A stretch of DNA of 64,000 nt from Promethearchaeota archaeon (GTDB taxonomy: Archaea > Asgardarchaeota > Lokiarchaeia > Sigyniarchaeales > SOKP01), in NCBI GenBank assembly GCA_019058295.1, contig JAHPZI010000022.1, forward strand, positions 92,316 through 156,315, given 5' to 3'. This document shows positions 1-34,779 of this stretch, piece after piece. Every line of letters starts with the position of its first letter. Positions within the stretch are counted from its first letter, which is position 1. A model generated the notes under the pieces. The model was given only the letters and a program-made list of their open reading frames with translations. It was not told the DNA's origin and did no database searches. A program made the translations under genes and the position numbers.

Positions 1-85
1 CCAAGCGTTCTTTTTCCAGTTTTTCTTTCTCTAAATTATCTTGGTCCGATTTTTCATTTTCATTTATTGGTTTCTTTTCTTCCAT
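1..85 (-). CDS. 5' part of a hypothetical protein (runs off the window start)
   Basis: ATG at 85-83 opens MEEKKPINENEKSDQDNLEKEKLEKERL with no stop before the edge; SD-like TGAG a few nt upstream. Confidence 0.6.
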   Translation of the reverse strand, partial: MEEKKPINENEKSDQDNLEKEKLEKERL

Positions 86-253
86 AATCTCAACTTTAAG
101 GTTTTAATTATAATTTTATTTTATAGCATTTGAAATTACTCTATTATTTTTTCTCGTTTTAATATTAATTTTTTAATTATAATAAATATTAATCTTTTTT
201 TCACAAAATTTATGATGTGTAGATTAAAATAAAAATGAAAGTAAGAAAAACAC

Positions 254-343
254 TTATAAATCTATTCTTGGGATAATATCCTCAATTTCTCTTCTTGAAG
301 GTTTGTACTTAAAGTATCTTCTTGATACACTATCTTCGAGTAT
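254..343 (-). pseudogene. Orphan duplicate of the 3' end of the acyl-CoA dehydrogenase gene
   Basis: Minus strand reads ILEDSVSRRYFKYKPSRREIEDIIPRIDL*, versus VLEDSESRRYFKYKPTKRESEDFIPRIDL* at 1800-1889 (23 of the last 28 aa identical, many synonymous changes). The upstream HGGGSN motif codons are absent. Confidence 0.9.
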
Positions 344-499
344 ATCTTTGATAAACAATTTTTTAAAGCGCTTTATGAAATTAAAAGAACTCAATAACAA
401 TTGCTAAAATATAATGGATGATATAAATTAATTTGATTGAATACAAATTATTGCACTCTTATTAAATATATTTAGAGGATCTAATAAAAATATAGAAAA

Positions 500-1669
500 T
501 TGAGAAAGAATAAAGATATGAAAAAAGACTTATCTAAAAACTTATCATCTAAAGAGTGGAGTCTTCTAAGAGAGAAGACATGGTTAAAAATAAATAAAAT
601 TTTTGAAGAACAAAATTCTAAATATGAAAGGCTGATTGATTTTGATAAAATTAAACAAGATATAATGAATAAATTAATAGTTGATTTTAAAGAATTTAAG
701 GATTTATCAGATAGATATAGAGAATATTTTAATAGTTCAATAATAGCAATTTATCTGTTGAGAACAGGCAAATATCAAAGCCAAAATGAGATTGTTAAGA
801 AATCTAGATTTGCTGGAAGATGGCATATTGAAGCTATAAGAAAGTGTTTGAAGTTTAATCTTAAAGAATCTATTTATTCTAGCTTATTTTTTGACAAAAA
901 ACAAAGATTAAAAGAATGTTCTGAATGTAGAAAAATTTTACCTTTTAAGAAATTCTCTGGGAGAAGTAGGAAATGTAATGATTGTAGAAATGTTAAAAAT
1001 ATGATTAATTATCATCAAAAGAAATTAGCTGTAGCTATTTTTATTACTCTTAAGCAGAATAGAGAAATTTTAATAGATGATTTTTTAGATTTAATTAAAA
1101 TGGAGGAAAAATTTTATTTAGAAATAAAGTGTAAAGAATGTGGTTTAAATGTGAATTATCTTCCCGCGTTGGAATTTCATCATCCTAGTATAAAATCAGA
1201 TATGTGGGATAAGCTAAGGAGTCGTCCTATAGATGCAATAATTAAAACATTAAATAAAGAAGAATCTGTCTTAATCTGCTCTAACTGCCATAAAGTATTG
1301 CATTCTAAATATTTTAATAAGAATAAACGTGAAAAAATATCAGAGTTAAATCGAAACATTACTCGAAATCGTGCTTTAATTCGTCTTAAAATGAAGCGAA
1401 TTATACTGGAAGAATTATATGGAGGTGTTTGTTCTCACTGTAGAGTTGCAGATTTTAAAGTACTACCAGCGATTCAATTTCATCACCCAGATCTTAAGAA
1501 AATTGGATGGCATAGGTTAAGAAATTATAAAGATCTAGATTATATTAAACATAAATTAATATCAGAAAATTGCATAGCTTTATGTGCTAATTGCCATCGT
1601 ATGGAAGAGGCAATACTATTCAACTCTCATAAAGATGAAATTTTATCAAAATATTTATTACATTACTGA
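500..1669 (+). CDS. Tandem (double) HNH endonuclease with an upstream C4 zinc finger
   Basis: CSEC-x15-CNDC finger, then two repeats of CxxC...(E/Q)FHH...CxNCH (CKEC..LEFHH..LICSNCHKVLH and CSHC..IQFHH..ALCANCHRME); very basic protein. Start may be TTG 500 or ATG 518. Confidence 0.8.
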   Translation: MRKNKDMKKDLSKNLSSKEWSLLREKTWLKINKIFEEQNSKYERLIDFDKIKQDIMNKLIVDFKEFKDLSDRYREYFNSSIIAIYLLRTGKYQSQNEIVKKSRFAGRWHIEAIRKCLKFNLKESIYSSLFFDKKQRLKECSECRKILPFKKFSGRSRKCNDCRNVKNMINYHQKKLAVAIFITLKQNREILIDDFLDLIKMEEKFYLEIKCKECGLNVNYLPALEFHHPSIKSDMWDKLRSRPIDAIIKTLNKEESVLICSNCHKVLHSKYFNKNKREKISELNRNITRNRALIRLKMKRIILEELYGGVCSHCRVADFKVLPAIQFHHPDLKKIGWHRLRNYKDLDYIKHKLISENCIALCANCHRMEEAILFNSHKDEILSKYLLHY

Positions 1670-1799
1670 TCAAAGATTTATTTTAGTAAAAATATTAGTG
1701 CATTATTTACTTATAAAGATAATTTAACAAAAATATAGTATTTTACTTTTTAGTTAGTGTCTCAATTATTTGAAATAAAATTAAAAATATAAAAAAAAT

Positions 1800-3165
1800 T
1801 TATAAATCTATTCTAGGTATAAAATCTTCCGATTCCCTTTTTGTAGGTTTGTATTTGAAATATCTTCTTGATTCGCTGTCTTCCAAGACATAATTGCTCC
1901 CCCCTCCATGTTTCTTGACTCAATAGCGATCTGCTATGAGTTATCATGCAATAAGGGTCGAGCAATCCAATTGGATTGGAATATTGCCTAATGAAACCGC
2001 GACCGCCCATTGTCCTGAAACAATGTATTGCGCTTTCGAAACCAAGCTCTGTACTAGATATTTTAAGTCCCATTGCTTGAGCTGCCATTAATTTAGAATT
2101 CGCAAGTTCTGGTCGTCGATCTAACTCTCTTGCATAATTTATCAATGTAGAAACTAATAGATTCATTTCCCTTATGTTTTTAGAGATGGGGAATCTTATA
2201 ACTTGATATTCATGCAAACGCCTCTCAAATTGTCTACGATGAAGTGCATATGTATGAGAATATAAAAGCTTTTTCATAGCATCTCCTAAAGCTTCAGCGC
2301 TAATAACTAATCTTTCTTCTGTTAGCTGGTGGAATGCTATATCTAATCCATTTCCATGAATTATGTTATCTATAGGCTGTTCTACTCTATCGAAGGTTAA
2401 TCTACACACGAAAGCATCAGTCATACCATAGGTTCTTATTCTAGCTGATTTAAAATCCCTCAATTGTTGATTTTCAGTATCAACTATAATAGCTCCTAAT
2501 GGCCCATTGTTTATTCTTCCATATACAATTATATAATCAGCGAACATGCCATTTGTAATAAAGACTTTTTTACCTTTAAGAATTGCTTTATCATCCGTTA
2601 ATTGAATATTTAATTCCATTCTTGATATATCGCTTCCAGCATTAAATTCAGTCATGGCTGATGACGCAGGGGCCCCATCTTTGGCAACAGGAATTAGAAA
2701 TTTTTCTTTTTGTTGCTCAGTTGCTTTATAATTGACTGGATTACAATATAATGTCCCTCCTGCAAGACGTCCCATTTCGACACTATAATTTCCTGCAACA
2801 TATCGTTCGCTCGACTCACTCCATCTCCCCCCACATAATGCATAAGCGATAAGTACATTTCTAGTAATTCTTCCAACTTCAAAATCTTCTTCGTTGAGAA
2901 TTGTGCTATAATACCCGTTATCAGCTAATTTCTTTAAAATTTTAATAATGATTTCTTTTTTTTTCTCTTGAGTAGGTTCCTCAACGAAATAATCGAGTTC
3001 CTCTAATATCTTTAAATCTTTATCAATATCTCTCTCTAAAAAATCGTAAAAATCCGCTAAAAATTCTTTTTCTTGGGGAGTAAGTAAAGGATTTGCTAAT
3101 AAGTCTAATTCAGGTACATATTTTTGGATTCTAATTGGTTCAAAATCTCTTAATCTAGTGTCCAT
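1800..3165 (-). CDS. Acyl-CoA dehydrogenase (LCAD/IVD-type catalytic arrangement), spliced: complement(join(1800..1911,1943..3165)), 444 aa
   Basis: AMTEFNAGSD, GKKVFITNG, LTEERL, RRQF and MGGRGF motifs. After removing 1912-1942 the C-terminus is LDPYCMIHGGGSNYVLEDSESRRYF..., with the D-x8-G-[ST]-N spacing of the family. The stop at 1802-1800 is followed by a T-tract. Confidence 0.88.
1912..1942 (-). other. 31-nt bulge-helix-bulge (BHB)-type mRNA intron
   Basis: RNA: ...UUG CAUG AU|A ACUCAUAGC AGAUC GCUAUUGAGU CAAG AA|A CAUGG...; a 9-bp intron stem (one bulged U), a 4-nt central helix CAUG/CAAG (one A.A mismatch) and two 3-nt bulges. Cutting after the second nt of each bulge restores the reading frame. 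Confidence 0.78.
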
Positions 3166-3368
3166 AATACCTCAATTTTAAATTTTAAATTATAAATATT
3201 TAATTCTAAGTTAAAAAATCAATTTAAGAATAAATAAATTGACATAACTCAATAATAGATATAGAAATTTATAAAATTAATATGAAACAAAACTCAATAT
3301 TATTTATAATCATAAAATGTAATCAATCTTAAATTATATCTATGAAAATGAGTTAAATGTGAAAAAAA

Positions 3369-4790
3369 ATGATAAAATTTAGTGAGAAACAGTTAAAAAT
3401 ACCTAAACTGATGAGACCAGTATATTTAGCTACAGTTGGAATGTCAAAATTTGATCGAGCGTTTCCAGAGACAAGAACAGAAGAATTATGTATTGATGCA
3501 TTAACTGCTGCTAGCGATTTTGTTAACATGACTCCTGCGGAGTTAAAGAGTTACATTCACACGTGTTATTATGGACATTTTGCTGATCATTTTGGTGATC
3601 AATTATTAGGAGAAGCTGTAATCCATGATAGATTAGGTCTTGATCCATTAGGGACTATTGGTGTGAAGACAGGTGGAGCAACAGGAGGATCCGCTATGTG
3701 GGAAGCTGTTAAGGCAGTTGCTTCAGGATATAGTGATTGTGCCCTAGCTCTTGGTTGGGAAAGAATGGATGAGGTTCCAACTGATGAAGGGAATCATCTT
3801 ATATCTTGTGCGGCTGATAAGGATTGGGAAACACCATTGGGGCACATTTACACAGGGTATTATGCTGTAATGGCTCAAAGATATTGGAAAATTTTTGGAA
3901 AGGAAGAGGAATCTTTCAGGAGAACTATGGCAGAAGTCGCTGTTAAAAATCGTGGTTATGCGAGAATGAACCCACATGCTCATGGTCCAATGAAAATAAC
4001 AGTAGATGATGTGATTAACTCTCCGATAGTAGCAGCACCTCTCCGAGTTCTCGATTGTTGTTTAATGAGTGTTGGAGCCGCATGTGGTATTGTATGTGAT
4101 GAAAAAACAGCTTATGAAATTACTGATAATCCTCTTAGAATATATATCGCTGCTGGCAGTCATACATTAAGAGTTGCTGATCGAAGAGATATGCAAATCC
4201 CACTCTTACCTAATGAAAAACCAGGACAATATGATAATTTAGCAAAAGAATTCCCTGGTGCAGACAGATATCCTGGATTTACTGGTTTCTTAGCTGCTCG
4301 AATGGCTGCATGGTATGCTTATCGCATGGCTGGTGTGGCTGATCCCACTGATGATCTTGATGTTGTTGAGCTCCATGATGCATTTACGATAAGTGATATC
4401 CAAACATATGAAGATATCGGTATCCGCCCCTATGGACAGGGAAGAGATTATATAGAGTCTGGTGATGCTTATGTAATTAATCCAAATACCAATAAACCAG
4501 GGGCATTACCAAGCAATCCTTCTGGCGGTTTGATTGGTTGTATGCATGCCGTAGGAGCGACAGGATTAATGCAGATTGCCGAAATTGGATATCATATCTG
4601 GAATCGATGGGATGAAATCCATGAACCACAAGAAAAATGGGATGCTTTTGGACGAGAAAAGCCCTCTGATTGGACGAGCTTACAAGTAAAGGGGGCTAAC
4701 CGTGGTTTAGCAATAAGCCATGCTGGAGTAGGTTCCCATGTAACATGTACAATTTTAATGAATCCGAATAAATTATTAAAGGAGGACTAA
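3369..4790 (+). CDS. Thiolase-fold (SCP-x/Ltp-like) protein lacking the nucleophilic Cys
   Basis: VELHDAF, NPSGGL..MHAVGATG, DCCLMSVGAA; TGGATGG in place of the CASG nucleophile motif. Confidence 0.85.
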   Translation: MIKFSEKQLKIPKLMRPVYLATVGMSKFDRAFPETRTEELCIDALTAASDFVNMTPAELKSYIHTCYYGHFADHFGDQLLGEAVIHDRLGLDPLGTIGVKTGGATGGSAMWEAVKAVASGYSDCALALGWERMDEVPTDEGNHLISCAADKDWETPLGHIYTGYYAVMAQRYWKIFGKEEESFRRTMAEVAVKNRGYARMNPHAHGPMKITVDDVINSPIVAAPLRVLDCCLMSVGAACGIVCDEKTAYEITDNPLRIYIAAGSHTLRVADRRDMQIPLLPNEKPGQYDNLAKEFPGADRYPGFTGFLAARMAAWYAYRMAGVADPTDDLDVVELHDAFTISDIQTYEDIGIRPYGQGRDYIESGDAYVINPNTNKPGALPSNPSGGLIGCMHAVGATGLMQIAEIGYHIWNRWDEIHEPQEKWDAFGREKPSDWTSLQVKGANRGLAISHAGVGSHVTCTILMNPNKLLKED

Positions 4791-33354: not shown

Positions 33355-34779
33355 ATGAGTTTCGAATTTTTTGGAGGAACGAGTCCAGTCGATGTGGGTC
33401 CAGTATACGAAGGTGAACGGATTAGAGGAAAGCAAATGTATATCGAATTCGGTGGTCCAAAGGTGGAAAAACATTTTGAACTCTGCCGCGTTAACCAAGA
33501 TGCTACCGACGGAAAAGTAACAATTATTGGTCCAGACATTAAAGATATGGAAGAAGGATCTAGCGTTCCAATAGGCATTCACATAGAAGTTGCAGGACCT
33601 CAGTTGGAGGAAGACCTAGAAGCGGTATTCGAAAGAAGAATTCACGAGTTTTGTAACTTTGTTAATGGTATTATGCATCTCAACCAGAGATATACAAACT
33701 GGATGAGACTTAGTAAAACAGCTTACGAAAAGGGATTTGATTCGCTTAATATATTAGGGGCTATTTTAATTCGACTTTTCAAGGCTGAATTGCCAATAAT
33801 CGAAAAAGCGCAAGTTACATTTTATACGGATGCAGAAAAAATTAAAGAACCACATGCTATGGCAATGAAAGTTTATAATGCTAGGGATGAAAGAGCTCGC
33901 GGTTTGCATGACGAAGATGTAGATATGTATTACGGCTGTGTTTTATGCCAAAGCTTCGCCCCAACTCATGCGTGTTGTATAACTCCAGACAGAACATCTC
34001 TTTGTGGGAGTATTAATTGGTTTGATGCAAGAGCTGCAGCAAAAGTTGATCCTAAAGGACCTCTTTACGAAGTTCCACCAGGAGAATGCCTTGATGCTTT
34101 TGCTGGAGAATTTTCGGGAGTTAACGATATGATAAAAAAGCGCTCTCTAGGAGAAATTTCGCGTATCTATCTTTACTCCGGTATGGAATTTCCACATACT
34201 TCGTGTGGGTGTTTCGAAGCTATTGATTTTTTTATTCCAGAAACAGGAGTAGGACATGGTATTATTGACCGAAGTCATAATGGTGTGGCACTAAATGGAC
34301 TTCCATTTAGTGCGATGGCAAACCAAACTGGAGGGGGCAAACAAATGCCTGGTTTTAATGGAATAAGTATCCAATACATCCTTTCACCAAAATTTCAGCA
34401 ATATGATGGTGGAATTAAGATGGTTGTTTGGATGGGGAAGACAGTGAAGGACCGAATATATGAGTTACTCCCTGAAGATTTAAGAGATAAGATTGCTACT
34501 GAAGAGGATGTTAGTGATCTAAACGATTTACCTGCTTGGTTAGAAAAAGTGAAGCATCCAATCATAGAGACTGAAGAATACAAAGCTGCTGTTGCTGGGG
34601 TAGAAGAAGAAGAGGAATGGGAAGAAGAAGGAGCGATGATGCCTGTAGGAACTGTTGGAATGACGATTCCTGGCGTTGGAGGCGCAGGTGGATTTAAGGT
34701 GATATTGAAGAATTGCAAGATTCATGCGGAGAGCATTATAATCAAGAAAATCGAATCTAGAAGGGGCAAGAAGAAATAA
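33355..34779 (+). CDS. cdhC: Acetyl-CoA synthase (ACDS beta subunit)
   Basis: YEGERIR, CVLCQSFAPTH, HTSCGCFE, GGGKQ.PGF, acidic linker and ILKN.KI.AE C-terminal domain. Confidence 0.95.
   Translation: MSFEFFGGTSPVDVGPVYEGERIRGKQMYIEFGGPKVEKHFELCRVNQDATDGKVTIIGPDIKDMEEGSSVPIGIHIEVAGPQLEEDLEAVFERRIHEFCNFVNGIMHLNQRYTNWMRLSKTAYEKGFDSLNILGAILIRLFKAELPIIEKAQVTFYTDAEKIKEPHAMAMKVYNARDERARGLHDEDVDMYYGCVLCQSFAPTHACCITPDRTSLCGSINWFDARAAAKVDPKGPLYEVPPGECLDAFAGEFSGVNDMIKKRSLGEISRIYLYSGMEFPHTSCGCFEAIDFFIPETGVGHGIIDRSHNGVALNGLPFSAMANQTGGGKQMPGFNGISIQYILSPKFQQYDGGIKMVVWMGKTVKDRIYELLPEDLRDKIATEEDVSDLNDLPAWLEKVKHPIIETEEYKAAVAGVEEEEEWEEEGAMMPVGTVGMTIPGVGGAGGFKVILKNCKIHAESIIIKKIESRRGKKK

Follow-up and report, generated by a model that had tools for sequence, protein, structure and literature searches.

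A gene for an enzyme of the acyl-CoA dehydrogenase (ACAD) family lies on the minus strand at the start of a 64,000-nt stretch of DNA from a Promethearchaeota archaeon (GenBank assembly GCA_019058295.1, contig JAHPZI010000022.1, positions 92,316 to 156,315 of the forward strand). This whole stretch is referred to below as the window, and positions are counted from its first letter. The gene is interrupted by a 31-nt insert without an open reading frame (ORF), and is followed by an antisense gene for a nuclease bearing two HNH modules in tandem, and then by a second, stranded copy of its own 3′-end. The end joined to the interrupted gene is termed copy A, and the stranded one copy B. The arrangement is best read as a free-standing homing-endonuclease cassette that replaces the 3′-end of its target and co-mobilises an ORF-less intron of the bulge-helix-bulge (BHB) type, a combined model to which a probability of about 0.6 may be given. 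The cassette would be ~1.6 kb long (about positions 341–1964) and would comprise the HNH gene, the donor-derived last 36 codons of ACAD and the 31-nt intron.

A filled site in the window and an empty site in its closest relative

Sixty relatives were searched and yielded 28 orthologous ACAD loci, of which 27 cover the insert site and 26 include at least 1.38 kb of downstream sequence (comparison loci and genomes are labelled with L- and G-numbers, and homologous proteins with P-numbers). The 27 insert-free loci all read TGY ATG NTN CAY GGN GGN GGN unbroken across the site, and no HNH gene was found downstream of the 26 with at least 1.38 kb of sequence. The closest relative (locus L011 of genome G007) is 96% identical to the window, in protein and DNA alike, over the 5′ 1215 nt of the gene, and has neither the insert nor the HNH gene. 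Its single 3′-end matches copy B at 81 of 90 nt and copy A at 71 of 90 (copy B is likewise 81/90 to L012), while its downstream flank is collinear with window positions 6–340 at 85% identity. Since both the 3′-end and the flank of L011 match copy B, this copy is taken to be the resident gene end, and the tract from ~1964 down to 341 to be imported. Empty alleles of just this kind, lacking insert and HNH gene and with a single 3′-end nearer to copy B, had been predicted in an earlier note on this DNA, made from the letters alone, and the prediction held.

Copy A is closest not to the window's own relatives but to insert-bearing alleles (L053, with 80/90 nt, L150 and L152). The insert itself is identical to that of L053 at 28 of 31 nt, and the HNH proteins of the two loci share 71% of their residues. 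Copy A, the insert and the HNH gene are all closest to the L053 lineage, and therefore arrived together. The identity to L011 remains near 96% up to ~22 nt before the insert, and all four differences within those 22 nt match L053. The locus thus has two marks of homing: a filled site facing an empty, collinear site in L011, as seen with optional genes, and a donor-like tract made up of copy A and the last 22 nt of exon 1, as left by co-conversion. There is little doubt that the cassette is an imported unit. Its left junction reads as homologous and its right one as non-homologous, with an 84-nt filler. As the earlier note had proposed, the locus has the structure of a ~1.6-kb integrase-less cassette bringing a replacement 3′-end to a conserved C-terminal motif, and the empty site in L011 bears this out; no integrase or transposase was found inside the 1.6-kb unit. 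Loss of the cassette from the relatives by recombination between copies A and B was considered and rejected, since it would have kept the insert, which the relatives lack.

Organisation of the locus

The coordinates of the features are collected in Table 1. The five elements originally listed in minus-strand order (exon 1, insert, copy A, antisense HNH gene and copy B) are all present, at positions that differ by a few bases from those first given. For the insert, the bounds 1941–1911 are equally valid, a single A being ambiguous.

Table 1. Features of the interrupted ACAD gene and the HNH cassette
Feature	Position	Strand	Remarks
ACAD-family gene, exon 1	1943–3165	minus	Pfam Acyl-CoA_dh_M and Acyl-CoA_dh_1; resident DNA except last ~22 nt
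Insert, predicted ORF-less BHB-type mini-intron of 31 nt	1912–1942	minus	bounds by the BHB cut rule
ACAD exon 2 (copy A), cassette-borne replacement 3′-end	1800–1911	minus	36 codons and stop
AT-rich spacer, 130 nt	1670–1799		separates the stop codons of the two convergent genes (ACAD and HNH); from the sequence
Tandem-HNH endonuclease gene	518–1669 from ATG (more likely) or 500–1669 from TTG	plus	383–389 aa
HNH upstream region in common with the L053 cassette	425–517	plus	probable promoter; outer end of the shared cassette
Filler, 84 nt	341–424		unmatched in L011 (empty site) and in the L053 cassette
Copy B, orphan original ACAD 3′-end	254–340	minus	last 29 codons; own TAA; cut off from the gene

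The duplication shared by copies A and B spans 87 nt (1886–1800 versus 340–254), with a blastn core of 73 nt at 82% identity (E = 4e-8; tblastx E = 3e-14). It begins 24 nt 3′ of the insert, close to the ~20 nt first estimated, and ends at the stop codon, as had been observed. Copy B bears a Glu-to-Val change within the conserved ESRR motif. When the window was compared with L053 by blastn, positions 425–1665 were matched at 79% identity, the match ending there. About 180 nt of non-coding DNA separate the HNH gene from copy B, beyond which lies the next gene. Rfam gave no match in window positions 1–3600. An assembly chimera is unlikely because a separate assembly from another run (Logan contig L058, run SRR14802574) has the whole arrangement of copy B, HNH gene, copy A and insert at 99.86% identity over 2097 nt.

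The 31-nt insert fits a BHB intron

The insert breaks the reading frame of ACAD between the Ile and His codons of the motif CMIHGGGS, in the conserved C-terminal part of the protein. Excising the 31 nt gives back CMIHGGGSNYVLEDSESRR, which is uninterrupted in the 27 insert-free orthologues (L011–L037). Further insert alleles were gathered by searching protein collections with the out-of-frame ORF tail, by following up the contigs found, and by a pattern scan of 161 species genomes of the class, 159 of which lack the insert by that scan. It was found at the same codon in ten diverged alleles (those of the window, L053, L152, L061, L149, L060, L150, L151, L153 and G119/L160), and is exactly 31 nt long in all of them. 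A blastn-short search revealed no further copies in the source genome.

All ten alleles fit the hBHBh′ pattern, with a 4-bp helix, a 3-nt bulge on each strand and an inner hairpin. The exon sequence CAUG, three bases before the insert hairpin, pairs with the four insert bases lying directly 3′ of the 24-nt inner hairpin. On the exon side this central helix reads CAUG (UAUG in two alleles), and on the intron side CAUG, CAAG, CAUA or CUUA; the bulges are AUA, AUU or GUU on the 5′ side and AAA, AUA or AGA on the 3′ side. All four pairs can form in four alleles, and three of the four in the other six, which include the window. The splicing endonuclease EndA cuts after the second base of each bulge, following the geometry of tRNA positions 37/38. 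Cuts predicted by this rule would remove 31 nt and yield the CMIHGGGSNY motif of all insert-free orthologues; at the predicted spliced junction, exon 1 (…TGCATGAT) is joined to ACATGGAGG….

Covariation was tested on a gap-free alignment of nine alleles (that of G119 was found later). Bases were paired in 83.9% of the cells, compared with 73.2% in shuffled alignments (0 of 500 shuffles as high) and 39–56% when the partner columns were slid. The covariation score was 0.283 versus 0.128 in shuffles, and again none of 500 shuffles reached the observed value. Nine base pairs are altered on both sides across the alleles, six of them in the inner 24-nt hairpin. A relaxed BHB scanner recovered the true site but returned too many false matches in 500 nt of AT-rich DNA, and a genome-wide scan was dropped.

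The coding sequence around the insert has been maintained as well. In the ten alleles the 5′ part is open, and exactly 36 codons and a stop follow the insert. For the first 21 codons of exon 2, compared among nine insert alleles, the spliced frame gave proportions of 0.72 for synonymous and 0.046 for non-synonymous differences, hence a pN/pS ratio of 0.06. The ratio was 1.9–2.5 for the remaining two frames, one of which is the continuation of the exon 1 frame. Strong purifying selection on exon 2 is confined to the spliced frame. A 1-nt homopolymer error in the G-run, hiding a 30-nt in-frame insertion, was ruled out, as ten alleles have exactly 31 nt and the orthologues carry no extra residues. 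Overall, it is highly probable that the insert is a spliced BHB intron. What had been noted as BHB-like fits the motif much better than first seen, now with ten alleles and covariation behind it.

Splicing machinery and a second mini-intron in the genus

The source genome encodes two EndA paralogues, which fits the broad-specificity (αβ)2 type of enzyme reported for Asgard archaea (PMC5829648). The ligase gene rtcB of two relatives of the same genus is interrupted, inside the GYDINCG motif, by a 29-nt insert (L154/L157, at ~33460–33490 of G006:C13, and L155/L158, in G002:C3); rtcB of G007 (L156) is insert-free. The rtcB insert is a canonical BHB, with a UUGG/CCAA helix, bulges AUA and AAA, and an inner stem of 8 bp. 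Messenger RNA mini-introns of this design thus occur in the genus, in a gene that is not plausibly a pseudogene. Being required for BHB splicing, the product of rtcB would in these relatives need splicing itself.

The tandem-HNH nuclease and its linkage to the insert

The HNH protein has a helical N-terminal domain, a CxxC…CxxC zinc ribbon and two full CxxC/HH/CxNCH modules, in both of which the HH, N and CxNCH residues are invariant. The protein was matched to phage families of HNH endonucleases (phrog_2255, E = 2e-21, in two stretches) and, weakly, to Pfam HNH (18.1 bits against a cut-off of 21.4). NCBIfam has no family for it or for its homologue P0007, and gave for P0005 just two chance matches (~14 bits against a cut-off of 200). 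A structure model was obtained with a pLDDT of 83.6; a Foldseek search of it against the PDB gave nothing below E = 1 and no whole-chain match. The gene is intact and single-copy in the source genome, and its dN/dS relative to homologues is 0.2–0.5, that is, it is under purifying selection. The family is small: of 1.84 billion representatives searched, 38 clusters were matched at E ≤ 1e-30 and 192 at E ≤ 1e-10. It is also patchy, being present in 48 of the 161 genomes of the class, with up to six copies per genome; some copies contain stop codons (G087, G121 and G106). A scan of metagenome contigs with the HNH alignment returned distant relatives only (≤31% identity), and no new ACAD-linked cassette. 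It is likely that the HNH gene is the homing engine of the cassette.

The seven closest homologues of the window protein are listed in Table 2. A more distant one (L151) is a 1081-aa protein whose C-terminal tandem HNH region is 30% identical to that of the window, and whose gene sits in the same convergent spot beside an ACAD orthologue.

Table 2. The seven closest homologues of the window HNH protein
Protein	Identity to window HNH	Locus	Context	Insert
P0001	99%	L058	other assembly of the same cassette	yes
P0002	71%	L053	ACAD orthologue, HNH convergent downstream	yes
P0003	57%	L054	ACAD orthologue, HNH convergent downstream	no
P0004	45%	L059	luciferase-like gene	no
P0005	41%	L060	ACAD orthologue, HNH convergent downstream	yes
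P0006	43%	L061	ACAD orthologue, HNH convergent downstream	yes
P0007	36%	L066	PAP2 gene	no

An HNH gene adjoins five of the nine insert alleles with enough flanking sequence (window, L053, L061, L060 and L151; the contig of L150 ends too early for it to be counted), and none of the 26 insert-free relatives. The association is strong, not obligate. Insert alleles fall into at least six well-supported clades of the ACAD tree, each with insert-free sisters. This sporadic distribution, which reads as horizontal spread followed by loss of the nuclease, is the pattern of a homing element.

Orphan 3′-ends at other targets of the family

Orphan 3′-end duplications flank tandem-HNH genes at six independent loci (window, L061, L043, L059, L164 and L166). 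L061 again involves the orthologue of the window's ACAD gene; its orphan begins 7 nt upstream of where the intron lies and therefore includes the site in uninterrupted form. At L043/L182 the target is an ACAD paralogue (Pfam E = 2e-7), and the repeat, of 103 nt at 87% identity, runs from just before an IGGS motif. The orphan of L059 is the 3′-end of a luciferase-like monooxygenase gene. In L164 (G097:C17, at ~640–830 and ~2700–3350) a tandem-HNH gene lies between an intact dut gene (dUTPase) and an orphan encoding the C-terminal half of dUTPase; this orphan starts in the GTIDSGYR motif and is decayed and frameshifted, in a window-like layout that has no intron. Finally, L166 (G115:C1) has a 24-nt direct repeat (~1254–1277 and ~2376–2399, orientation reversed) around a 332-aa tandem-HNH ORF. 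The repeat resembles the T-arm and acceptor 3′-end of a tRNA, an assignment made by this likeness alone; ARAGORN calls no tRNA at L166, so the tRNA there may be intron-bearing or unusual.

The window locus is not a one-off: in the same HNH family, replacement 3′-ends are carried for four other targets. The earlier note had proposed surveying homologues of the nuclease for neighbouring genes with BHB inserts. Among the cassettes covered here, such inserts occur at the loci of the ACAD orthologue, and there only: those at the ACAD paralogue, the luciferase-like gene, dut and the tRNA have no intron.

Proposed mechanism

According to the combined model, the HNH enzyme would break a cassette-free allele at most a few tens of bases away from the intron site. 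A putative break in this region is supported by the breakpoints of the orphans, which stem from two independent events and bracket the intron site (−7 nt in L061 and +24 nt in the window), and by the short 5′ conversion tract. The left end of the break would be repaired by homologous copying from a cassette-bearing allele, producing a 5′ conversion tract of ≤22 nt, and synthesis would go on to copy first the intron, then the replacement 3′-end and finally the HNH gene. Non-homologous joining of the right end would strand the original 3′-end, as copy B in the window and as its equivalent in L061. If the new strand re-annealed as early as in the homologous 3′-end, transfer would be limited to the intron and some flanking sequence, giving insert-positive, HNH-negative alleles; where downstream synteny permits, homology on both sides would leave no orphan.

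The ACAD gene is proposed to stay functional because its pre-mRNA folds into a bulge-helix-bulge, from which the host EndA paralogues and RtcB would remove exactly 31 nt, restoring the frame. In the DNA, the intron would probably disrupt the recognition site of the nuclease and so protect the allele that carries it, and the breaks made by the HNH enzyme could serve to spread the intron, whether or not the HNH gene goes with it. The repair and protection steps are drawn by analogy with the phage element MobA/gene 60 and with collaborative homing, both discussed below. That intron and nuclease cooperate in this way, through shielding and co-mobilisation, is somewhat favoured over their not doing so.

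Several observations weigh against this model. Four insert alleles (L149, L152, L153 and G119) have no HNH gene within 1.4–4 kb, and L054 has an HNH gene next to an ordinary-looking, insert-free site. The expected co-occurrence of insert and nuclease thus stands as an association and fails as a rule. (L054, alone in its clade, has DAF instead of DPY 9–15 nt upstream of the intron site, a polymorphism that may confer resistance to the HNH enzyme encoded next to it.) Some of the alleles were gathered via the HNH gene, which inflates the association; in the subset found via ACAD alone, the HNH gene accompanies two of five insert alleles versus 0 of 26 insert-free loci. An orphan 3′-end is kept at only two of the five HNH-linked orthologous ACAD loci, and none was found in L053, L060, L151, L149, L152, L153, L054 or L160. 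Many members of the nuclease family carry N-terminal extensions of 500–1000 aa with no Pfam match (L039/L163 in G003, L045 in G019, L069, L073 and L151). As to the intron, one mismatch occurs in the central helix of six of the ten alleles (A·A in five, with CAUG/CAAG, and U·U in L153, with UAUG/CUUA), and the outer helix between the exons has just 2 bp (G-C and U-A) before a 2 × 2 mismatch, with 3–5 bp beyond. RtcB was not found in the source genome, which is 79% complete; it is present in seven of eight genomes of the same genus. Splicing of the insert in vivo is itself deduced from sequence features.

Alternative explanations

The alternative that survives best, unlikely as it is, holds that two independent elements are present, a genuine BHB intron and a genuine homing nuclease of the ACAD 3′-region, linked by proximity through co-conversion; there would then be no immunity, and the target would not be the intron site. 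The allele with an HNH gene and no insert (L054) and the four with an insert and no HNH gene would be accounted for, as would the four other kinds of cassette that bring 3′-ends without an intron. The mini-intron in rtcB of G006 and G002, with no tandem-HNH gene within 4 kb, also fits two unconnected elements. On the other hand, the window's insert is part of the imported tract and came in together with the HNH gene, two independent insertions have their breakpoints at −7 and +24 nt from the intron site, and insert and HNH gene are associated at five in nine versus none in 26. Protection of this sort has moreover its precedents in MobA/gene 60 and in F-CphI/psbA.

A distinctly improbable option is that the tandem-HNH protein is a cellular or defence protein and that the cassettes are moved by unseen machinery, for example by a recombinase acting in trans. 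Its many paralogues with long extra domains, and the several copies per genome, could be so explained, and replacement of 3′-ends is typical of integrase-driven islands. However, the 1.6-kb unit contains neither integrase nor transposase, and the HNH gene is the only protein gene common to the six independent cassettes, none of which contains an integrase. Their junctions are imprecise (with filler and a variable orphan start), unlike those made by site-specific recombination, and their targets are conserved catalytic motifs, which is usual for homing enzymes.

Even less probable is that the ACAD gene is a pseudogene, broken by the cassette, and that its insert is a scar of repair or else a small palindromic transposon flanked by a 7-bp target duplication. 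The frame is indeed broken, and the last 7 nt of the insert (CAAGAAA) resemble the 7 nt that precede it (CATGATA). Because CAUG is self-complementary, the first eight alleles could not tell a complement of the exon from a copy of it. The two alleles with a TGT Cys codon could: facing the exon UAUG, the insert has CAUA in G119 (a perfect complement) and CUUA in L153 (three of four pairs), never UAUG. These two alleles rule out a target-site duplication or a miniature inverted-repeat transposable element. A pseudogene would also not explain why ten diverged alleles keep exactly 31 nt with intact exons, why exon 2 is selected in the spliced frame or why the stem shows compensatory changes, and no second copy of the insert exists in the genome.

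The least credible option is that the insert is not spliced but either translated, by programmed +1 frameshifting, or bypassed by the ribosome as in gene 60. It can draw on the use of bypassing by the MobA cassette, the closest phage analogue, and on an unspliced frame open for 44 codons. Against it, take-off and landing codons that match are absent, as is a stop after a take-off site, an AUG-to-AUG hop ends in the wrong frame, base pairs are conserved where the peptides encoded by the insert are not, and an insertion of ten residues would split the most conserved motif of the protein.

Relation to known systems

The nearest parallel to the proposed cassette is the phage T4-type element MobA/gene 60. 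According to a preprint (bioRxiv 10.1101/2022.08.31.505936, citing Bonocora 2011), this element, which encodes an HNH enzyme, supplies its target with a homologous region as replacement and with an insert of 50 nt, located ~20 nt from the nick. The preprint further reports that cutting is blocked by the insert and not by polymorphisms, and that some lineages lose the nuclease and keep the insert. In both systems an HNH gene and a substitute stretch of the target travel as a unit, a short non-coding insert that has to be removed from expression lies ~20 nt from the (here putative) break, and insertions appear recent and independent in several clades, with the nuclease lost and the insert kept in some lineages. 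They differ in the host, archaeal in the present case; in the way the insert is removed, predicted here to be by tRNA-splicing enzymes acting on RNA, there by ribosomal bypass; and in the nuclease, here a single chain with two HNH modules. Nor is the gene split here into two ORFs, the old 3′-end being left instead as an orphan.

Collaborative or trans homing is known for F-CphI and the ORF-less psbA group I intron of cyanophage S-PM2 (PMC6083498), and for MobE and the I-TevIII intron (PMC2790892). There too, a free-standing nuclease gene adjoins a gene with an ORF-less intron, which is believed to keep the nuclease from cutting its own allele and to be mobilised by it. The intron of the window, by contrast, would be a 31-nt, protein-dependent BHB intron and not a self-splicing ribozyme, the nuclease belongs to another family, and the system is so far known from its DNA.

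The only confirmed archaeal mRNA BHB intron found in the literature is that of cbf5 (PMC2738675). Present in Desulfurococcales and Sulfolobales (Crenarchaeota), it is 16–44 nt long, ORF-less and cut by a heteromeric EndA; its authors remarked that it could not encode a nuclease of its own, being too short, and that no way of moving is known for introns of such a length (PMC2738675). The ACAD intron resembles it in being a short, ORF-less BHB intron, patchily distributed and placed at a conserved motif of a coding sequence. It differs in the gene and in the phylum, here Asgard, and in lying within a nuclease cassette whose arrival is visible in the comparison of filled and empty sites. Archaeal rRNA BHB introns, for their part, may encode LAGLIDADG homing endonucleases of the I-DmoI type. 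These share with the proposed system a BHB intron moved by a DNA endonuclease through homing; in them, however, the nuclease gene is inside a long intron, whereas here it lies outside an intron of 31 nt, is of the HNH type and would replace the 3′-end of the gene too. Integrase-driven islands enter tRNA genes or protein genes at the 3′-end, which they restore. As in those islands, the 3′-end of the target is duplicated and the element-borne copy is the one in use; unlike them, the 1.6-kb unit has no integrase, its junctions are imprecise and its only protein is the HNH nuclease.

No report of an HNH-linked BHB intron was found in the literature. A preprint on Asgard tRNA introns tested several arrival routes and left the mode of arrival open (bioRxiv 10.64898/2026.10.13.758758). 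It may tentatively be suggested that tandem-HNH cassettes are the archaeal counterpart of the MobA/gene 60 element and a general vehicle for ORF-less BHB micro-introns, with the intron shielding the site and later spreading without the nuclease gene. If so, they would provide a concrete arrival route for the abundant, unexplained introns of Asgard archaea, one that reaches metabolic mRNAs and possibly tRNA genes, with a small family of single-chain double-HNH nucleases as the vehicle. The logic of a nuclease plus a shielding insert would extend from phages to Asgard archaea, host RNA splicing taking the place of ribosomal bypass or ribozymes, and would suggest one way in which tiny introns enter archaeal protein genes. 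The window locus would show such an arrival in progress, with its filled site, an empty site in a relative 96% identical, a donor-like tract and a stranded gene end. It also furnishes testable substrates, namely insert-minus and insert-plus sites of 17–30 bp for the nuclease, and a 68-nt BHB RNA.

Further observations on the neighbourhood

A conserved AT-rich intergenic motif, TTTTATTATAAATTNTCAGAGAAT…, which probably serves as promoter for the adjacent gene, follows the ACAD stop codon in L014, L016, L023, L027, L029 and L037, and is also found in L061 on the side of the orphan. At a greater distance, ~59 kb before the start of the window (G000, contig C22:30303–33335), there are 27 intron-less tRNA genes arranged in two divergent blocks, while many other tRNA genes called by ARAGORN in the source genome bear introns of 13–54 nt.

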